A stretch of DNA of 32,702 bases. Source: a virus. Lineage: Duplodnaviria > Caudoviricetes. This document shows positions 5,288 to 31,201 of this stretch, piece after piece. Both the position numbers and the translations under genes were made by a program. Positions within the stretch are counted from its first letter, which is position 1; each line of letters opens with the position of its first letter. The notes beneath the pieces were generated by a model. The model was not told the DNA's origin and searched no databases. It worked only from the letters and a program-made list of their open reading frames with translations. The stretch covers positions 1-32,702 of the IMG/VR virus record IMGVR_UViG_3300048762_000474; one strand, given 5' to 3'.

Positions 5288-5655
5288 GTCAAAAACAAGG
5301 TAAACTCTACCAGAAAATTAGAACAATAAGCCAACCTGTACCTCTAAGTCTTAAAGGTCAAGAACCAGTTCTTCGCCTAGTCCAAGAAGTAGTTACTAAC
5401 CTCATCGACGATGCAACAGCAGACTTCCCATTCAACATCTACTTTGACAACGCAGTAGGCGGAGAAAACCATTATAGCTTTTGCAAGAAAGGCGGCAGCC
5501 AAATAGAAGACGTCAGCGAAGTCACCAGAGGAGTTGCTGAATGGTTAGAACGCAATTTCTACGGCGTCAAAGAGAAAAAAGGGTTTTACCTAGTCAATCG
5601 GGACGACACCAAAACAGGTAAACCTTCGTCTGCAACAGCACCCCAACAACCCTAA
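5284..5655 (+). CDS. Hypothetical protein (123 aa)
   Basis: ATGA overlap with ASCH; 3' end overlaps the convergent ATPase-GNAT gene by 62 bp. Confidence 0.65.
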   Translation: MSQKQGKLYQKIRTISQPVPLSLKGQEPVLRLVQEVVTNLIDDATADFPFNIYFDNAVGGENHYSFCKKGGSQIEDVSEVTRGVAEWLERNFYGVKEKKGFYLVNRDDTKTGKPSSATAPQQP

Positions 5656-7039
5656 CCAACCGCGCCAACTTCGCAACATCCGCATTCCCAATCGCAATCT
5701 CCCAATCAACACGCGTAAAAAACATCTGACGCGCCCCCACACCACCAAACTCCTTCCGAAAACGCGGATGCCTATTACACCGAAACGCTTCCCTAAGCCT
5801 ACCCAGGTCCGGAGAACTCAAACCCTCAAGCTTCGCTTTAACGTAACGTTCACTTCCCAACAACTGCATATCAAACCCCAACTCCAACAGCACCCCAGAG
5901 ATTTTAGAAACAGACTTCACACTCTCCTGCACAGCAACACGTTTCATCCCGGCTTTTTCCGCGAAGGGCGAATACTTGGGCATAACCGCAATCAACTCCA
6001 CAAACTGAGTACCGCAAAGAGGCAACGTATCCCGAATCAACTTAGCCCCCAACCCCACCGTTCGATATTTCGGGTGAACAACCAACCGATTAATGATGCA
6101 AAGTTGCCTATTCGTCTCCTGCATAGACATACGTGGAAGCACCATTCGCCTACCAAAACAAGCCGGCGGAGGATAACAATACACGATCACACCGCAGAGC
6201 TCATCACCACGCACCAACCGAAAGATCCTGCGAACAACACTCGTCTTATGCCCCCGATAATGGAAACAACTGAGTTTCTCCCAGTCCTTTTTAGTGCCCT
6301 CTTCAACCTTCATCTCCCGAATCAAACTACACTCAGCAACAGAGGCGTTCGGGTAATACTTGATTTCGATCTCCTCACCAAACCGCTTATGCACAAGCAC
6401 ACTTGGCGAGAGATCCTCAACCAAGTCGCTATGCGTAGTCGCAACAATCACAGCTTTCCCTTGTTGCCGAGCAATCTTCTGCAGGTTAAAAGAAATAATC
6501 TTAGCCGTATCCCTATCCAGGCACGCGCAAAACTCATCCATCAACCACCACTGCTTCTTGGACTCAATTAACTTGGCGATTCTGTAACGGTACTTCTGGC
6601 CATCACTCAACTGTTCGTAAGACCGCAAAAAAAGGAAAGCGTCATTCAGACCCACTCGGCTAAGAAGCTCAAGTCCTTCCTCAACAGTAGCGCCAAGGGT
6701 CTCGATAAGTGGCGACTCCGGTGTGATTCGGACGTCTGATAAGTCGATGGCTTCCTCACCTAGATCTGCTCGGATGGCACGAAGCAAAACTGATTTGCCA
6801 CTGCCGCTATCTCCCGTAATGTAGACCACGTCTTGCGGTCCAATCTTGAGCTCCGCATCCAAAACCTTGAACACCTGAGCATCATCAATCCCTAAGCCGA
6901 ACGCTTCAGCAACCACAAGACTTCTGGGCGTTATCTTTGTGTGGGTTTCATAGCTTATGTTAAAGCTGAATTTGCCCTGGCATCTATCATACGTTCTTTG
7001 GCATTTATGAATCTGGAAAACATCCCTTCGACGCCTCAT
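5594..7039 (-). CDS. ABC-type ATPase fused to a GNAT (Mom-like) acetyltransferase
   Basis: Walker A GDSGSGKS, signature LSDGQ, Walker B WLMDE, H-loop TTH; then FHY, CGVIVY and NRLVVHPKYRTVGLG acetyl-CoA motif A; no transmembrane segments. Confidence 0.9.
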   Translation of the reverse strand: MRRRRDVFQIHKCQRTYDRCQGKFSFNISYETHTKITPRSLVVAEAFGLGIDDAQVFKVLDAELKIGPQDVVYITGDSGSGKSVLLRAIRADLGEEAIDLSDVRITPESPLIETLGATVEEGLELLSRVGLNDAFLFLRSYEQLSDGQKYRYRIAKLIESKKQWWLMDEFCACLDRDTAKIISFNLQKIARQQGKAVIVATTHSDLVEDLSPSVLVHKRFGEEIEIKYYPNASVAECSLIREMKVEEGTKKDWEKLSCFHYRGHKTSVVRRIFRLVRGDELCGVIVYCYPPPACFGRRMVLPRMSMQETNRQLCIINRLVVHPKYRTVGLGAKLIRDTLPLCGTQFVELIAVMPKYSPFAEKAGMKRVAVQESVKSVSKISGVLLELGFDMQLLGSERYVKAKLEGLSSPDLGRLREAFRCNRHPRFRKEFGGVGARQMFFTRVDWEIAIGNADVAKLARLVRVVGVLLQTKVYLFWCRPD

Positions 7040-11503: not shown

Positions 11504-12316
11504 TTAAACAGTCGTGCGAATATCATAACTTACGATTGCAACTGCACCATTGTTAACGGCTTGAGAAACAGCATCATGAGCAATCAAATAGAATTTTTGA
11601 GGACCTGCACTATTGACAAATGTAACTGCCATCCCCACCTCAGTTATAGTCACAGTTCCACCACTGCCATTCACTAAAACCCTTGCAATGATAGTGTCAA
11701 CATTAGCTCCAACAATGCCTGCTGAACCCACAGCAGTCGCTTGATACTGAAGATTGCCGCTTGCGATTCCATGAGCAATCAAAGTTTGCATCACATAGTC
11801 AGTTGATGCAGGAGCAGTTGTGCCAGTACCCACTAAAATACCATAAGTCGTAATTGCAGGAGGCGCATTCAAAGCAGGCAAAAACAGAAAATAATTTCCG
11901 TTAGAGAGATTTCCTTGTTGCTGTAAAGTATTTGTTGTATCTCGCACCGCAGGGGTTGTAAACATGGGGTTTGTTGATAGAGTCGAATAAACGTGAGATG
12001 CTACATACTCTATAAAAAGTTGTGAAAACTGTAAGGTGAAACTGTGACTTTTCATTTCTCCTGTGGTCTTCGATAGTTTGCCGTGACTTTTGATGTATTC
12101 CTGTTGTTGTTTTGGGTTATCCATAGTTTGCAGGTGCGCTCTTTGCTCTGGGGTGAAGCCTCCATAGATGTCTATGCGATGCAACAACTGAATTGGGCTT
12201 ACTCGTTGAGTCGTGTGATCTTTTAGTTTCTGCCTCAGAGTCCAAAAATTGAGTCCGCGCAAAATCGCGGTGAATTCGTTGGGTTTCAATATTTTTATGG
12301 GATTCATTTTAGTCAC
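11504..12316 (-). CDS. Tail fibre/baseplate-associated structural protein
   Basis: ILVGTGTTAPASTD...ITEVG pattern typical of tail-fibre/collar proteins; last gene of the tail block. Confidence 0.7.
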   Translation of the reverse strand: MTKMNPIKILKPNEFTAILRGLNFWTLRQKLKDHTTQRVSPIQLLHRIDIYGGFTPEQRAHLQTMDNPKQQQEYIKSHGKLSKTTGEMKSHSFTLQFSQLFIEYVASHVYSTLSTNPMFTTPAVRDTTNTLQQQGNLSNGNYFLFLPALNAPPAITTYGILVGTGTTAPASTDYVMQTLIAHGIASGNLQYQATAVGSAGIVGANVDTIIARVLVNGSGGTVTITEVGMAVTFVNSAGPQKFYLIAHDAVSQAVNNGAVAIVSYDIRTTV

Positions 12317-12350: not shown

Positions 12351-14834
12351 TTAAGTTGTGCAGGTTAAGGTGTGATAGGTCCCGTTCGTCTGAGTTGGAA
12401 CCGTATATGTTGTTCCGGTGAAAACAAGCGTACCATCTAAGTACCATTTAGTATTTGTTCCTGAGCGCGTAGCAAAATAGGTACCGCCTGATGCCACAAG
12501 AAAGTTTCCAACACTCGTTGTTCCAGCAGTAGTTATGCGCCAGCCAATCACAGGTATCGCAACTATTTGATGTAAAGTATTGTTTGTTTGCGATGGAATA
12601 GTGTAGCTCGCAGATAAACCGTTACTCGCCACTGTTCCAACATTGGTGGTTCCATCAAGTTTAAACGGGTTAGTCAATGGAAACACATAGCCAAGTGTGG
12701 CACCCAAACTACTGATTGATGCAGACACCGCCAAAGCGCCACCTGAAGCAACCACTTGCAAACCAACAGGAGACATAGCCACATGTATCTCGTATGCGCA
12801 GTCAACCCACCACTTTGCCACATCAACAGAAACAGAAACAATCGTACTCATCGACGCTATAACAGGAGAAAGAATCTGAGTATTCACAATCGCTCCAATC
12901 GCTGAAAGAACAGGCGAAAGAACCTGAGTATTCACAATAGATCCAATACTCGAGAGAATTGGTGCTCCAACACCTATTTGCCCCACAAAAATCGCAACTA
13001 AATCATGAAACCCACCCGTAACTTGAGCAGGAACCGTCACAGGATTCGCCGTCGAGTAGTTAGCGCCATCAAACTGCCAAACACTAAAAATACAGCCACC
13101 CAAAGGATTAGCCGTCACAGTCAAAGATGCGCCAGCCGCCACAGTTTGAGAACCACTAGGCGTAGTAGACCCCCGATTCGGATCATTAACATCAATCGCG
13201 CAGCCCCACCCAGCTAAACCACCTGCCCCACCTTTCTTTACGACCCGGTTAAGGGGAAAAAAGTATAACTCTAACACCTCCTGGTCGACTAAACACCGCT
13301 GCCAAAACATAGATTCAGCAACAACACCCTTCAAAAACATACCAATATAGACTGTGTTAGCTGAACTATGCGGTGCACCTGTTTGACTAAAGGTTTTGTG
13401 CAAGACACCGTTAACGTACATTTTCAGGTGAACGCCATCGTAAGTAACCATGAAGAAAAGCCGCGCCCCAACAACTGCGATTCCAGCGTCAGAGTTGAAG
13501 GTGTGACCCACATTTGAGGCATCAGTAAAAGAGAAGGTTACAACTCCAGTATTCACATAATAAAATAAGGCAAATTGCCCATCTTTATGCGCAACAAACC
13601 GCATTGTGCTATCGTTTGCTGACGGACTAAACCACGCGCCCACACTGAACTTGGTTGAAGCATGAAAATCAATCGAGGCACCACAATCAACCCACCCCGT
13701 TCCATCAAGCGTAAGCATCATAGTCACAGGACCCTGCTGCCAAATTCTGCCTACGATTGTTCCATCAACAGGCGTATCACGAGGACTCCCATCCTTAGCA
13801 ACGGTTCCTGACCCCTCATTTAGATGGTATAAGCCAACAAGCCCCTGCAGATTAAGGCTCCAACTTGTTGCACCCGGCAAATAAATACCCTGAGCCTCCC
13901 AGCTGCGCAGATCCGCAATTGTTCGATCAACACTTTTCCTGAACTTATCCAGCTGCAACTTCACCTGAGTCCGCGTTTTGTTAAGTTGCATTATGCGGTA
14001 GGTGCCATCCAGGCAGTACTGCGCATTAACAATCGAAACCGAATCCCCAGTCGCATAGGCCTTCCCAACAGTAATTAAAACGGAGATAGGCATGCCTGAA
14101 CTATCAGTGTTAACTTCAGCAAGCTTCGAAGCCGCTATACCGTTTAGGGTTGCTTGGTCAGTCGCCGTATTTTGGCTAAAAGTCGTAACTTTCACTCCGG
14201 ACCCAGCCACCCCCAAAATATGATTACCCCAACAATCAATCCCACGCACAATCACTTTGGTTCTCTGCTTAGAACGATCCAAGCCCCGACTGCTCACGGA
14301 GATGGAACTTGGCGTCCAAACAACACCCGACCCTTTCACAGCAAGATTAACGGTTGTCCCATCCGTCGAAAACAAATCAAGATTTAAGGCATCCGCCAAA
14401 AACTTGAAACAATCCAAACGATTCGCGTTATAAAAAACCACACTAACAGGCGTCGAAGGACAAGGGCCAACTGAAATCCCGGTTCCAGCTACAATGTCAG
14501 CCGCTATCGTTGAAGCAGGTTTTTGGTCGTACACGCCACTTATGGGCTCCGCTTCATCGAGCGTCAACATCACAGTATCGTAAATCACCGCTTTAATTCT
14601 TGTAGAACTAATGTCGCCCCCAGAGAGGGTGCCGCTGAAGACAAGTGCATCATCAAACCAAACAGCAACCAAGAGATCCTGCTGAATCAAAGCACGATTC
14701 ACAGCAGAATTCGCAATGTAAAATGTGGCGTAACAGTCGCCGTCAAGCTCCTCGTTTGTTTGGTCCCATACTGCTTGAAACGGAATAAAAGCAGACGACC
14801 CCACATCCCAATACTCAATAACCCAAAGACCCAA
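12351..14834 (-). CDS. Tail tip hub/adhesin with LamG-like domain and C-terminal beta-sandwich repeats
   Basis: N-terminal hub-like region; LVGLYHLNEGSG...TYDG...YVNG LamG motifs; LTVTANP...FSVWQFDG B-repeat-like domain. Confidence 0.85.
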   Translation of the reverse strand: MGLWVIEYWDVGSSAFIPFQAVWDQTNEELDGDCYATFYIANSAVNRALIQQDLLVAVWFDDALVFSGTLSGGDISSTRIKAVIYDTVMLTLDEAEPISGVYDQKPASTIAADIVAGTGISVGPCPSTPVSVVFYNANRLDCFKFLADALNLDLFSTDGTTVNLAVKGSGVVWTPSSISVSSRGLDRSKQRTKVIVRGIDCWGNHILGVAGSGVKVTTFSQNTATDQATLNGIAASKLAEVNTDSSGMPISVLITVGKAYATGDSVSIVNAQYCLDGTYRIMQLNKTRTQVKLQLDKFRKSVDRTIADLRSWEAQGIYLPGATSWSLNLQGLVGLYHLNEGSGTVAKDGSPRDTPVDGTIVGRIWQQGPVTMMLTLDGTGWVDCGASIDFHASTKFSVGAWFSPSANDSTMRFVAHKDGQFALFYYVNTGVVTFSFTDASNVGHTFNSDAGIAVVGARLFFMVTYDGVHLKMYVNGVLHKTFSQTGAPHSSANTVYIGMFLKGVVAESMFWQRCLVDQEVLELYFFPLNRVVKKGGAGGLAGWGCAIDVNDPNRGSTTPSGSQTVAAGASLTVTANPLGGCIFSVWQFDGANYSTANPVTVPAQVTGGFHDLVAIFVGQIGVGAPILSSIGSIVNTQVLSPVLSAIGAIVNTQILSPVIASMSTIVSVSVDVAKWWVDCAYEIHVAMSPVGLQVVASGGALAVSASISSLGATLGYVFPLTNPFKLDGTTNVGTVASNGLSASYTIPSQTNNTLHQIVAIPVIGWRITTAGTTSVGNFLVASGGTYFATRSGTNTKWYLDGTLVFTGTTYTVPTQTNGTYHTLTCTT
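12861..12956. repeat. 48-bp (16-aa) in-frame repeat within the adhesin
   Basis: PILSSIGSIVNTQVLS / PVLSAIGAIVNTQILS / PVIASMSTIV. Confidence 0.8.
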
Positions 14835-14846
14835 AGGCGTCAGCTC

Positions 14847-15221
14847 CTAAAGCACCACGAGGGCACTAAATTTGCTCAGCACCATCGTATAATCATAAAT
14901 CAAAGCCGCCCCCGCTCGCGTCGGATCAAACTTCTCCAAAAGCCAAATCCCATCAATACTCCCGTTTGAAGAAACCACCGTTATCGAAGACCCAATTAAC
15001 GCACGCATAGGCGCCAAATACGTACTCCACAACTGCGAATCAGTTTTTGAATCATCCGCGATTGATCCCGACAACTGAACACTATTCGCAGATGTCCCAT
15101 CCACTACTGAAACAGGGTCGGTTCCAGACTGCGGAATCACATCTTTGTTAATTGTTGTAACCCAAGCAATTTGCTTAGGCCCAAAAGGAAAAGTTACAGA
15201 TCCAAAACTCCAAGCAGTCAC
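14847..15221 (-). CDS. Distal tail (Dit-like) protein
   Basis: Beta-rich 124 aa between TMP and hub; VQLSGSI strand. Confidence 0.6.
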   Translation of the reverse strand: MTAWSFGSVTFPFGPKQIAWVTTINKDVIPQSGTDPVSVVDGTSANSVQLSGSIADDSKTDSQLWSTYLAPMRALIGSSITVVSSNGSIDGIWLLEKFDPTRAGAALIYDYTMVLSKFSALVVL

Positions 15222-16621
15222 TAACTAACCCTCCGACGCGCCAAAGCCTCATTCAACGACTCAATCGTATGTTGACTCGCCACATCATAATCAGCCTCAG
15301 TCTGAATATAATTCGTAACATAAACGTTAATGACGTCAGGCTGCCCAGACGCAGCACCCGGCGAGTTGCCTCCACCAGAAACAGGCGACATATCCAACGG
15401 AGAAACACCCTGCAACCCAAAGATACTGCTGTTACTGCCGCTCAAAGGAATCACTGCCTCCGGACCCGCCTCCCCAATCAAAGCAAAAGTCGGCTGCGTA
15501 ACAATGCCGCCTTCAGCTAACCCAATAGTTTTTAATGCACCGCCAACTACGCCGCCGATGGAACTGCCAACGTTAACCACAGTATTTATGCCATCAATCA
15601 ACGGCTTCAAAACAGCCATAACTATGTTAATTGCACTTTGAAAAGTACCTGTCAAAAAGTTACTGACGGGCACCAACACATTATTCCAAAGGTATTCCAA
15701 CGCATCTTTCACATCGTTAAAAGCTGTTGCTAAGTCTCCACCAAGAACCTTACCAATCTCGTTAATTGCATCACGAAACGGCGGACAAACATTATACGCA
15801 TAAATCAAAGCGGCCGTTATCGCAGCAATCGCAAGTACCACAAGCATAATCGGATTCGCATCCATAACAGCATCCAAAGCAGCAGTCGCCGCAGTCGCCG
15901 CCTCAGTCGCCAAAACCTGCGCCCACTGAGCCGCAGATTCAGCGCCAGACGCAACAGTAGACGCAATCTTCGCAAGCGTCCCAGCTTCCTGCATAGACGT
16001 AAGAACACCGATGATAGCAACCACCGAGGGAATCACCGTTAACGCACTCATAATCCAGGCGCTTTGGTTGCTGCGTTCAGCAACGCCAACACGTTCCTGA
16101 GCCACCGACAAAGAATCCTGCGCAGTCTGCAACTTAGCGAGGGCATCAGCAGTTTTCTGAGGATCCCCACTAGCCAACGCCGAATTATACGCTTCCTGCG
16201 CCGACTGCACAGAATTCGTGCTTTTCTGCACATTCAAATTAGCCCGATCCAAAGCAACCTGACTATTCTCCACACGGTCAACAGCCATATACAAAGTCGC
16301 ACCCGACAAAGCCGCACTATTCATCGCCACAACAGAATTCTGCAACCCCATACTCGAGCCCTGCGAAGCTGTACCTACACCTTCAAGCGCAGTTACTTCA
16401 CCCTCAGCATCCACCGTCGTAGACACCATCGCCGCACCTGCAGTTTCCTCCGCCTGCCCAGACTCAACTAACGTCTCATCAGCCGCATCAACAGCTGAAC
16501 CAAGACCACTATTAGCATCTGCAACAGCATCCGTACTCTCAGTAATTTGGCGCCCAGCATCCGCTATAACACTGCTTGCCTCATCCGTCGCATGCAAAGT
16601 AATTTCGATTTCTGTACTCAA
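15221..16621 (-). CDS. Tape measure protein (466 aa)
   Basis: IEITLHATDEAS start, Ala-rich helices, ANPIMLVVLAIAA, FRD motif, C-terminal LAEGGIV...IGEAGPEAVIPL. Confidence 0.92.
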   Translation of the reverse strand: MSTEIEITLHATDEASSVIADAGRQITESTDAVADANSGLGSAVDAADETLVESGQAEETAGAAMVSTTVDAEGEVTALEGVGTASQGSSMGLQNSVVAMNSAALSGATLYMAVDRVENSQVALDRANLNVQKSTNSVQSAQEAYNSALASGDPQKTADALAKLQTAQDSLSVAQERVGVAERSNQSAWIMSALTVIPSVVAIIGVLTSMQEAGTLAKIASTVASGAESAAQWAQVLATEAATAATAALDAVMDANPIMLVVLAIAAITAALIYAYNVCPPFRDAINEIGKVLGGDLATAFNDVKDALEYLWNNVLVPVSNFLTGTFQSAINIVMAVLKPLIDGINTVVNVGSSIGGVVGGALKTIGLAEGGIVTQPTFALIGEAGPEAVIPLSGSNSSIFGLQGVSPLDMSPVSGGGNSPGAASGQPDVINVYVTNYIQTEADYDVASQHTIESLNEALARRRVS

Positions 16622-16785
16622 TGCACTTTACTTCTCCACTGCAACCAACTCACCAAATAAGAAATTTGGGTACCCGTCAAAGACGCAATGTAATCAAGGG
16701 TGTAACCGTATTCATGCGCAATTAACCCTGTAACTTGAGCGGCGGGGCAACTTGCGATCCAATTCGGCGTTGGACACGCAAAAAA
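16618..16785 (-). CDS. gpT-like -1 frameshift extension of the tail assembly chaperone
   Basis: T TTT TTG slippery heptamer at 16785-16779; the -1 frame stays open to a TGA overlapping the TMP start and reads ...IAHEYGYTLDYIASLTGTQISYL... Confidence 0.8.
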   Translation of the reverse strand, partial: FFACPTPNWIASCPAAQVTGLIAHEYGYTLDYIASLTGTQISYLVSWLQWRSKVH

Positions 16786-17195
16786 CGGCTAAACACCTGC
16801 GACAGCAAAAGAGTCAACGCATTACGAAGATCAAACGGCATCGCCTCATAATCATCCCACGTGTAAGACGAATCAGCTTTTCGCAACATAGCAAAGACCA
16901 CATGCTCCGCCCTTTCCGTATCATCAACAATACTCTGCACATTCAACGCTGCAAGCTCACTCTTCGACAGCAAACCATAACGTATCTCGCCCAAATCAGG
17001 GTCAATTAACACCTGAATTTTACGTGTAGACTCAGCCAAAGCTTTAGGGTCAAAAAGCTTCGCAGAAGCAGCCACTACAACAGCACGCTTCGCTTGATCG
17101 TCAGCCGCCATCTTCTCAAACTCAGCGATCCGCGCTTCATTCTCCGGAGTACTAAGCCTAGCAACATCAGAACTCTGTTTATTTTTAGCAGACAA
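16722..17195 (-). CDS. Tail assembly chaperone (gpG-like)
   Basis: Lies between tail tube and TMP; contains the slippery site. Confidence 0.8.
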   Translation of the reverse strand: MSAKNKQSSDVARLSTPENEARIAEFEKMAADDQAKRAVVVAASAKLFDPKALAESTRKIQVLIDPDLGEIRYGLLSKSELAALNVQSIVDDTERAEHVVFAMLRKADSSYTWDDYEAMPFDLRNALTLLLSQVFSRFLRVQRRIGSQVAPPLKLQG

Positions 17196-28454: not shown

Positions 28455-29009
28455 TTAAGAAACCTCCCTATCTTTTGGCTCAACAAACTGTAAGCCTAAC
28501 GCAGTGAAAATATCCTCTTCTGACTGAGAAGCAATTACTTTGGAAGCAGTCATACAACCACTCGTAAGAGTCTGAATAACGCCATCTTTGGCACTCAACA
28601 TCAAACCCTTCGAACGCGCCAACGTGCAAAGCTTCACATTATGCTCTTTGCTGCCCGTTCGAATCAGCAGGATAATGCCCCACGTCTCCATACGCGCACG
28701 GTAAAGGTCAACTTGAAAGCCATCAGCGAAAGTACAACGCAGCAGTTCCTTACCTGAAACCCCAACCATTAACCCCTTCTTTTTTAGAACATAAGGAATC
28801 ATGTCAGCCCAAACTGTATCTGCTGAAAACTCAACATCAAACCCAAAAGCCGAAGGATACCAACCAGCCTTAGGCACAGCTACAATATCAACGTCGCCAA
28901 CCTCAACCTTCTCACGCCGAATGGATCCAGCAAACGCAACACGCTCACAAAACGGCTGCAGAGCATCACAAACTTTTTGGGCTAAAGGCAAAGCATCTTC
29001 TAGTCGCAT
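28455..29009 (-). CDS. polX: Minimal family X DNA polymerase (palm + thumb)
   Basis: AGSIRR...GDVDIV, VDL third Asp, TGSKEHN, SEEDIF..LGL.FVEP.DRE. Confidence 0.9.
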   Translation of the reverse strand: MRLEDALPLAQKVCDALQPFCERVAFAGSIRREKVEVGDVDIVAVPKAGWYPSAFGFDVEFSADTVWADMIPYVLKKKGLMVGVSGKELLRCTFADGFQVDLYRARMETWGIILLIRTGSKEHNVKLCTLARSKGLMLSAKDGVIQTLTSGCMTASKVIASQSEEDIFTALGLQFVEPKDREVS

Positions 29010-29173
29010 CAAGAACCCTCCTTATCATCAAAATCATGCGTCCAAACACATGCACAGTTCCCGCCCTCACATGCCGAATGCCAACCCTCAAAACAAGGGT
29101 CACAAATAGGAACGGGAACCTGAGCGACGTTTTGGTTAAAGCGCACTGGATGCTTCTTAACAGACTTTGTCAT
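29009..29173 (-). CDS. Small Cys-rich protein (54 aa)
   Basis: CDPC...HSAC...CAC; coupled at both ends. Confidence 0.6.
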   Translation of the reverse strand: MTKSVKKHPVRFNQNVAQVPVPICDPCFEGWHSACEGGNCACVWTHDFDDKEGS

Positions 29174-29388
29174 TTCCGTTTTCTCCTACAAGTAATCGAC
29201 TTAACATCCAACAAACACAAAACACTCTTCCTGCAACCAACCATACAACTGCAAGACACAGGAACCCCAGTAATCATATCACCAACAGGAACACCCCAAC
29301 GAGTACGCACAGAAATACGGACCTTGCCACGCTGTAAACAACAGAAAGATTCAACATCCTCAAAATACGGCTCAGAGTTATCGCTCAA
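29170..29388 (-). CDS. Small Cys-rich protein (72 aa)
   Basis: TTG start overlapping the MTase stop; multiple Cys. Confidence 0.6.
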   Translation of the reverse strand: MSDNSEPYFEDVESFCCLQRGKVRISVRTRWGVPVGDMITGVPVSCSCMVGCRKSVLCLLDVKSITCRRKRK

Positions 29389-30026
29389 GAAGAAACAACC
29401 TCCAATGCTAGAGCATCCCGGCAAGCCTCACCCAAAGGAACAGACAGCGGCAAAGGAATCTTCGCCCTAAAGAAACTCCGAAGCGGATTAAACGCAAAAA
29501 CACTATTCAGTTTGTCTTGAGCGCCATTACAATGATCTTTCGAGTACCGGACAGAGCGAATACAACCGCTCGTTTTAGCCATAACCTCAGGCGATTCAGG
29601 CAACAAGAAATCAGGAAACTTACCCCACAACATCCACGGACCACGCTTAAGCCGAGGCGCCCCCAACAAAGGCTCAATAAACGGCAAACTACCCCTAACA
29701 TTCTCCAAAATCCAAAACCTTGGCTTAACCTCCTCAATAATGCGGATGCAACCCCGAACAATCGCTAAACCCTTCTCTGGATCAGCAGGCCCACGCTGAC
29801 CCCTAGCAACCGCAAGCCGCACCAAAGAAGAAAACTCTGTGCAAGGAGGACTAGCAGTAACCACATCAAAGCATCCCGAAGGACTCCAAGAGCACACATC
29901 AGCATCGATTAAACGATACGGGTAACCAATGTCAAGCACATCAACGCCCGTACATTCGAAACCTGCACGGTGAAAACCAATACTCCAACCGCCAAGTCCC
30001 GCACACAAATCCAGAAGAGCAGGCAC
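29385..30026 (-). CDS. Short DNA (cytosine-5)-methyltransferase
   Basis: Motif I DLCAGLGG, motif IV ASPPC, motif VI ENV; only 213 aa. Confidence 0.88.
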   Translation of the reverse strand: MPALLDLCAGLGGWSIGFHRAGFECTGVDVLDIGYPYRLIDADVCSWSPSGCFDVVTASPPCTEFSSLVRLAVARGQRGPADPEKGLAIVRGCIRIIEEVKPRFWILENVRGSLPFIEPLLGAPRLKRGPWMLWGKFPDFLLPESPEVMAKTSGCIRSVRYSKDHCNGAQDKLNSVFAFNPLRSFFRAKIPLPLSVPLGEACRDALALEVVSS

Positions 30027-30277: not shown

Positions 30278-31201
30278 CTAAGAAGCCTCCAGGGGCAACA
30301 TCGCCTCACCAGAAAATACATCGTGTTTATGCTTAGCGAACTGGGGTTTCAGCTCCTTGATTGCATCGATATTCATTGAAAGCGGAACATAGACTGAATC
30401 TAAGACGAATGTTTTGAGTTTCTCTAACTCTGTTTTCAATTCAATGTATGATGTGCTCAGAGAATCATATGCTTCAGAAAGAACTTGCAATTTCTTCTCT
30501 AGGAGTTCCTGACGGCGATCGACATATTTTTCTATGCTATTGGCAATTTCCTCAATAACCTCGTCTTGACTCTTAACGGGATTCGCAGGCTCAATTTTTA
30601 TCGGAGTTTCTTTAAGTGCACCATCCTTGCCGAGCAACGATAACGGAATAACATGTTCAGAAGTATTTTCACCTATGAGGGCAAGTGTTGGAGCAGAAAC
30701 TATGCCACCTTTAGGCGTCTCAGGACTTCTTTCTGCTTCTTTAGTTGCGGCGCCTTTTGGCTTAAGTTTCCAGCGAGACACAATAACCCCTTTCTTCTGC
30801 AAAACAGTAATACGGAGCCCCACAGCAGAAGCCTTACGCTTAGGAAACTTTACATTAAACTTTTGAGCAATCACGCCAGTCGTTAATTTAGGCTGCCGAT
30901 TCCACAACTCCGTTAAAAAAGCGTCTTCAGCAGGCTTCCACATAACCTCAGGATCATGCAGGTTCATTTTATTTTTAGTTGATTCCACATCTTTCACCTC
31001 AACATTACCAAGAACTTTCAAAGGAACAACCGTCATGGGGTGATTATCCCATGTCTCAAAAAGAACCGTAAAACCTTGATCACATAGCAAGGCTTCCCAA
31101 TCTGGATCAAACAATTCGCCTGAAATAGCAAGGCACATGCCAAACTCAGGCACATCCAACAATGGCCCAAACTTCGCTGCTAACTCCTCAAAAAGAGTCA
31201 C
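30278..31201 (-). CDS. Myb/GcrA-like HTH plus coiled-coil protein carrying a tape-measure-like motif
   Basis: WKPAEDAFLTELW...IAQKF...RKASAVGLRI; GGIVSAPTLALIGENTSEHVIPLS; heptad region; KHKH. Confidence 0.8.
   Translation of the reverse strand: MTLFEELAAKFGPLLDVPEFGMCLAISGELFDPDWEALLCDQGFTVLFETWDNHPMTVVPLKVLGNVEVKDVESTKNKMNLHDPEVMWKPAEDAFLTELWNRQPKLTTGVIAQKFNVKFPKRKASAVGLRITVLQKKGVIVSRWKLKPKGAATKEAERSPETPKGGIVSAPTLALIGENTSEHVIPLSLLGKDGALKETPIKIEPANPVKSQDEVIEEIANSIEKYVDRRQELLEKKLQVLSEAYDSLSTSYIELKTELEKLKTFVLDSVYVPLSMNIDAIKELKPQFAKHKHDVFSGEAMLPLEAS

Follow-up and report, generated by a model that had tools for sequence, protein, structure and literature searches.

This study concerns a 32,702-nucleotide stretch of viral DNA (hereafter the window; IMG/VR record IMGVR_UViG_3300048762_000474), in which a short motif characteristic of the C-terminal region of tape-measure proteins (TMPs) recurs in the linker of an apparently non-structural protein of 307 residues. 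The question raised by this locus is whether the displaced motif has a role connected with tails, as suggested by an earlier note on this DNA, which proposed a decoy or sensor of tail assembly, or whether it is a captured fragment that is merely tolerated.

Architecture and genomic context of the 307-residue protein

The window represents a temperate head-tail virus, Pfam or PHROG matches having identified genes for an integrase, terminase, capsid, neck and TMP, and its host is likely to be a member of the Bathyarchaeia because all nine of the nine genome loci with a relative of the 307-residue protein belong to this group. The principal features of the gene are as follows:

30278..31201, minus strand: 307-aa ORF, a member of a mosaic Bathyarchaeia-provirus family with an N-domain, one or more HTH units, a variable linker, a coiled coil and a conserved C-tail
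31016..31201, minus strand: N-terminal alpha/beta domain (residues 1-62), family-defining, without a Pfam match
30767..30940, minus strand: three-helix HTH-like unit (residues 88-145), Myb-like or winged-helix, putatively DNA-binding
30326..30568, minus strand: long predicted coiled-coil helix (residues 212-292), from the AF2 model

In the AF2 model, which was built from a 13-row alignment, the alpha/beta N-domain is followed by the three-helix unit and by one long helix, and the motif falls within the low-confidence linker between the latter two (pLDDT<50 at residues 146-186). The window protein itself gave no Pfam HTH match, and among 13 homologues Pfam Myb matched two (best E 0.0013) and GcrA one (E 6e-6). 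The best Foldseek match was likewise Myb, with an E-value of 0.19 and no match at E<=0.001, and VIA returned winged-helix rows at Z about 7, the fold rows being divided between Myb and winged helix. Such a modelled fold would be consistent with DNA binding by this unit, and together with the position of the gene it suggests that the protein might act as an early regulator. Among homologues, both the linker content and the number of HTH units vary, and in related proviruses the family gene adjoins methylase, PolX-like and ATPase genes. A single-protein viral scan recovered no relative of the protein, Atlas offered no usable match to it, no RNA holder is listed for the sequence, and the accessible parts of two papers on Bathyarchaeia viruses (PMC11705971, PMC10848311) contain nothing on the family.

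Several neighboring genes show features of their own. Immediately downstream of the family gene is a short C5 cytosine methylase-like gene (29385-30026, 213 aa). A 185-aa protein (28455-29012) matches the palm and thumb of PolX only and has relatives in 17 family loci, and a 481-aa ABC-type ATPase with a weak GNAT acetyltransferase match (5594-7039), adjoining the terminase, has related genes in 18 family loci. The 270-aa gene after the hub (11504-12316) combines a lower GC3 (0.35) with a local break in strand skew, which suggests that it was swapped in.

Origin of the motif in the 307-residue protein

The features that bear on the comparison of the motif with the TMP of the same virus are:

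30638..30709, minus strand: 24-residue TMP-type motif (residues 165-188 of the 307-aa ORF)
15221..16621, minus strand: the virus's own TMP, 466 aa, identified by 21 PHROG families (mostly TMP) and by gene order in the tail module
15440..15511, minus strand: canonical motif copy in the TMP (residues 371-394), starting 96 residues before the C-terminus
15227..15298, minus strand: terminal helix of the TMP (residues 442-465), the sole confidently modelled part of the TMP end and the likely equivalent of the tip-binding helix

The two copies share 17 of 24 residues, whereas after 1000 shuffles of the 307-residue protein no ungapped 24-mer matched the TMP at more than 11/24, and PHROG TMP profiles match this stretch of the protein (E 8.5e-4 and 4.8e-3). 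At 14 of the 17 identical residues the codons differ, and only 39 of 72 nucleotides are the same. These observations bear out the propositions of the earlier note that the match is real, that the motif is of TMP origin and that it did not arise by a recent local duplication. Contigs from runs X2 and X3, which belong to other studies, span the motif with no differences. Runs X1 and X2 also contain a second allele over the motif, which shows 28 and 43 differences, respectively, and a 6-nt insertion. This allele is probably P0002-like, as its loose ends, translated by hand, give N-terminal residues of that protein; in runs X4-X8 the motif is not covered.

All TMP profile matches to the ORF center on the motif, with none beyond it, and a profile of the post-motif region of TMPs scored -2.4 bits on P0001 and -2.9 bits on L050. 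As far as sequence comparison goes, the demonstrably TMP-like part of the cassette found in the motif-bearing proteins is 24 residues only. Further possibilities were considered and rejected. A continuation of TMP homology into the 15-residue tail after the motif and the next helix is unsupported by the post-motif scores. Nor is the ORF placed like a TMP gene: the TMP itself sits between the genes for the chaperone (16722-17195) and for Dit (14847-15221) and the hub (12351-14834), whereas the ORF has methylase and PolX-like genes for neighbors, some 14 kb away from the tail module. A foreign insert marked by a shift in codon composition is not indicated, the rise in A-ending codons not being specific to the cassette (3/24 fourfold sites versus 8/66 upstream). 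Among 72 motif DNAs no close donor TMP was recovered, the best match over the 36-nt core of the motif being 24/36 nt for the window and 31/36 for L050.

The motif in virion proteins and the tail tip

The motif matches 4765 clusters at 50% identity. A set of 65 viral loci provided 46 closed ORFs, and in these its start lies 57-178 residues (median 71) before the C-terminus. Of the Bathyarchaeia motif ORFs that were scanned, 26 of 27 match a TMP PHROG, several through the motif alone, and two TMP sequences in the PDB contain it (25vf_5 and 9g8s_w, E 2.4e-4 and 0.13). It also occurs, mid-protein and in canonical form, in podovirus-like proteins encoded immediately after the portal (L122:2572-3537, 321 aa; L164:2608-3471, 287 aa), which have differing C-terminal domains. 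Moreover, a Peptidase_S74 domain near residue 255 is present in 3/60 scanned representatives (P0114, P0149 and P0163), which bear at least two motif copies each and are probably virion proteins other than TMPs. Judged on these architectures, the motif is not exclusive to TMPs. An AF2 model of the TMP end, from a 44-row alignment, is confident for the terminal helix only and leaves the motif without a confident fold.

Functionally, the earlier note built on the premise that TMP C-termini, and with them this motif, engage the tail tip. According to the available portions of the structural reports, 33 C-terminal TMP residues are resolved in JBD30 and contact the upper baseplate protein (PMC11445458), the last 35 TMP residues of T5 lie in the hub cup (10.1101/2022.09.20.507954), and in the 853-residue lambda TMP residues 818-849 are resolved and about 690-817 unresolved, with the lambda study stating that what cleaves the TMP in this general region, and exactly where, is unknown (PMC12617516). 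The premise is thus unsupported, though not disproved, because the resolved tip contacts are confined to the last 30-35 or so residues and the motif of the virus's own TMP begins well upstream of them. The motif-bearing family members lack the terminal region of TMPs altogether.

Distribution within the family and alternative linker cassettes

A pool of 124 sequences was assembled from 25 database proteins and the family ORFs of 99 loci; 53 of these end in the family C-tail and reduce to 42 that are non-redundant at 95% identity, the full-architecture set. The motif was found in three of the 42 (the window protein, P0002 and L050) and in none of 71 other family sequences. A TMP-derived profile separates these carriers sharply, with 50-58 bits against 3.8 for the next best family sequence. 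The earlier note had itself named absence of the motif from homologues as evidence against a function, and this is largely the situation encountered, 39 of 42 being without it. Three carriers on two backbones nevertheless show that the motif is not an accident of a single genome. No fourth carrier emerged from scanning viral contigs for sequence patterns (two scans, neither with a match), from a profile search (61 matches, comprising two known carriers and 59 sequences without the family domain), from 401 class-level genomes (17 with motif matches, none in a family ORF) or from the best 150 of the 4765 cluster representatives.

In the carriers the motif is part of a larger shared unit:

30593..30715, minus strand: 41-codon linker cassette (residues 163-203), consisting of a Pro-Lys junction, the motif and a 15-residue tail, common to the window, P0002 and L050, with 73% nucleotide identity to L050

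The same linker holds a different, Cys-rich cassette in six proteins (P0004, P0005, P0007, P0012, P0024 and L094), in five of which it directly follows Pro-Lys, like the motif; the remaining full-length members have neither. The carriers do not form one clade in trees of the N-module (AU p 0.0055, 60 columns) or of the C-module (0.0058, 75 columns), trees that are based on few columns with rough support and that conflict with each other, for example in the placement of P0009. Since the carriers nevertheless share the cassette, it appears to have moved between two backbones. Between the window and L050 the cassette flanks are identical at 73/87 nt, versus 59-64% in four neighboring domain blocks. 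The Cys-rich cassette has four cysteines that could possibly bind metal, and no source for it was found outside the family in the loci examined. In L050:1603-5603 the carrier gene abuts an integrase and then the host EF-1-alpha gene, a probable provirus end.

Carrier residues and the TMP consensus

For comparison with the carriers, 148 cluster representatives (of the best 150 of 4765) supplied 275 motif copies without gaps. Each of these representatives has two to six copies, in a ranking that favors proteins with several. The near-invariant TMP positions 1, 2, 7, 13, 14, 18, 22 and 23, i.e. the Gly-Gly, Pro7, Gly-Glu, Glu18 and Pro-Leu residues, are intact in all three carriers, and the motif has no indel. 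Elsewhere the three carriers depart from the consensus, with rare residues in the second half of the motif. Position -2, which is Ala or Gln in 261/275 natural copies and never Pro, is Pro in 3/3 carriers, and Gly16, present in 267/275 natural copies and never replaced there by Thr, has been lost in two of the three. The window copy has Thr, Ser and His at positions 16, 17 and 19; Ser is found at position 17 in none of the 275 copies, and His lies outside the eight commonest residues at position 19, which account for 272/275. L050 retains the canonical Ala-Gly-Pro-Glu. The change away from consensus is probably not purely decay, because a Bathyarchaeia TMP (L168) has Asn-Thr at positions 15-16; it also has the nearest core to that of the window (24/36 nt). 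A tendency of the carriers to vary where TMPs vary was not significant (p 0.28).

Selection and the 36-nucleotide core

The earlier note had looked to a low dN/dS as a sign of function. This could be assessed on DNA for one carrier pair, the window and L050, and for the 41-codon cassette as a whole it holds, with pS 0.47, pN 0.20 and dN/dS 0.31 (Fisher p 0.005). When the motif is split at a point picked post hoc, the first 14 codons give pS 0.79 and pN 0.15 (p 3.5e-5) and the last 10 give pS 0.31 and pN 0.39. However, the divergence is concentrated in one segment:

30659..30694, minus strand: 36-nt core (motif positions 6-17), much more diverged from L050 than its flanks, possibly overwritten by another TMP gene

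Only 17/36 nt of the core are identical between the window and L050, fewer than either copy typically shares with 72 TMP-type motifs (medians of 20 and 25 of 36). The silent differences cluster, with an unbroken run of seven (p 0.006; 0.04 when only multi-fold codons are counted), a result that becomes borderline when the boundaries are left free (p 0.064). Outside the core the excess of silent change loses significance, with pS 0.27, pN 0.12 and p 0.18. The dN/dS signal may therefore reside in a core that was overwritten from another TMP gene, and such a patch would explain the clustering and would have imported the TMP pattern of conservation. At the protein level, the window and P0002 agree at 21/24 motif residues, 49/58 residues of the HTH and 78/89 of the coil, i.e. 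the motif is kept no better than the folded parts.

Possible functional significance of the TMP-type motif

The reading that we favor, with a probability of roughly 0.6, is that the motif is part of a captured, laterally spread and weakly constrained spacer or passenger without a role in tail assembly. According to this reading, the motif would have been captured once by non-homologous recombination at the Pro-Lys junction, the 41-codon cassette would have spread between backbones by recombination between co-resident proviruses, and the core would later have been patched from another TMP gene. The insert would be tolerated because its site is a flexible tether between the HTH and the coiled coil of a protein that presumably has a regulatory function. 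Consistent with this are the rarity of the motif (3/42), the alternative Cys-rich cassette, the scattered placement of the carriers, the truncation relative to TMPs, the off-consensus residues, the comparison with P0002 and the proneness of the motif to duplication. Pulling the other way are the cassette dN/dS of 0.31, the signal in the first 14 codons, the intact invariant residues and the Asn-Thr of L168, and the overwrite itself rests on borderline statistics with no close donor found; the spread onto two backbones, too, may be a sign of selection. The motif is real and repeated, but rare in its family and truncated, and a constraint of its own is not firmly evidenced. In such a setting it is apparently undescribed: the literature searched, which for the most part did not include subscription papers, yielded no account of a TMP fragment within a non-structural protein.

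Alternatively, the captured piece might have been co-opted as a structural or self-association element that aids coiled-coil assembly or positions the HTH, unrelated to tails. Retention of the invariant residues in 3/3 carriers and the purifying signal in the first half of the motif would fit this, as would the tandem copies and the non-TMP virion proteins, which are what would be expected of a portable module. Nevertheless, we consider it rather unlikely, as 39/42 relatives do without the motif and AF2 predicts no confident fold for it in either the carrier or the TMP, albeit from shallow alignments (13 and 44 rows).

The TMP end motif could also be a portable interaction module displayed on a non-structural regulator, where it would either sequester a factor, host or proviral, by which the TMP end region is recognised or keep competing viruses from assembling their tails, with its core refreshed, and its specificity updated, by recombination with the TMP genes of competitors. 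Its patchy distribution and lateral spread suit conflict genes, one carrier (L050) keeps the canonical Ala-Gly-Pro-Glu, and the core of the window is nearest to a TMP of the Asn-Thr type. The TMP C-terminal region is moreover a known defence target: prophage-encoded interference with tail assembly is described for the Tab/anti-Tab system of Pseudomonas phage JBD26, in which, in the accessible part of the report, inhibition by Tab maps beyond TMP residue 856 (PMC10884400), and for Tai (PMC11364771, likewise available in part). However, that part does not describe Tab/anti-Tab as bearing a TMP fragment, and most members of the present family are without the motif. Similarly, the STAND NTPase Avs18 indicates that host sensors of TMPs exist, so that a decoy is conceivable, but in the portion of the preprint at hand what it senses, and is modelled on, is a central helical segment of about 130 residues, necessary and sufficient for activation, and not the motif (bioRxiv 10.64898/2026.01.04.697583). 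In the available structural data it is the terminal helix, missing from the carriers, that makes the resolved tip contacts, and two of the three carriers have residues absent from the 275 natural copies. The best PADLOC match among five proteins was E 0.006 (weak rows at E 0.006-0.04, from a 2023 library that may lack Tab and Tai). We therefore regard a decoy or poison as improbable; if it were true, it would constitute a new way in which archaeal viruses interfere with tails or TMP sensors.

A coupling of transcription to tail assembly, in which a tail-tip or chaperone protein binds the regulator as feedback, could be entertained in that the motif adjoins the HTH-like unit; it is very improbable given that 39/42 orthologues in similar gene neighborhoods lack the motif and that the copy diverges from the virus's own TMP instead of following it (39/72 nt, seven residue differences). 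Chance similarity or an assembly chimera, to which the shortness of the match and PHROG E-values of only about 1e-3 might point, can for practical purposes be dismissed in view of the shuffle maximum of 11/24, the profile scores of 50-58 bits, and the identical sequence in two further studies together with a diverged allele spanning the motif.

Relationship to mosaic evolution and to TMP end motifs

Genes of tailed viruses are mosaics of segments joined by illegitimate and relaxed-homology recombination. The incongruent module trees, the variable number of repeats and the interchangeable cassettes in one linker are reminiscent of this process, with the differences that in this case a virion-protein motif can be named as the donor and that the core may have undergone a second exchange. 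The 24-residue homology to the C-terminal GG..P....GE...E...PL motif of TMPs (PHROG 10093 and 12798, part of NCBIfam NF058675, and the PDB entries above) preserves the invariant positions. Unlike in TMPs, however, the motif is internal to a non-structural HTH/coiled-coil protein, without the upstream hydrophobic-Ala/Gln element or the TMP terminal region, and the window copy is off consensus at positions 16, 17 and 19. If the preferred reading of a captured spacer is correct, the locus offers a traceable virion-gene fragment that entered the linker of a regulator and then moved between backbones, and a warning that a captured piece may owe its dN/dS to the gene from which it came. Under any reading, the motif deserves notice in its own right: it is widespread, extends to virion proteins other than TMPs, and is assigned no role in the literature examined. 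The soluble proteins that carry it in canonical (L050) and altered (window, P0002) form would be handy baits for its partner.

Some further occurrences of the motif were observed. It is repeated within proteins, with two copies in L178:2-967 and in L200:1393-3105 and six in P0087. Short motif frames of 91 and 92 aa, considered as separate genes, proved to be broken TMP genes, and in two assemblies (L166 and L170) TMP and hub genes are split by frameshifts that could reflect sequencing error or decay. A cyanomyophage gene annotated as an M15 metallopeptidase (L201:3855-6905), beside a hub assembly gene, also carries the motif and may be a TMP equivalent.
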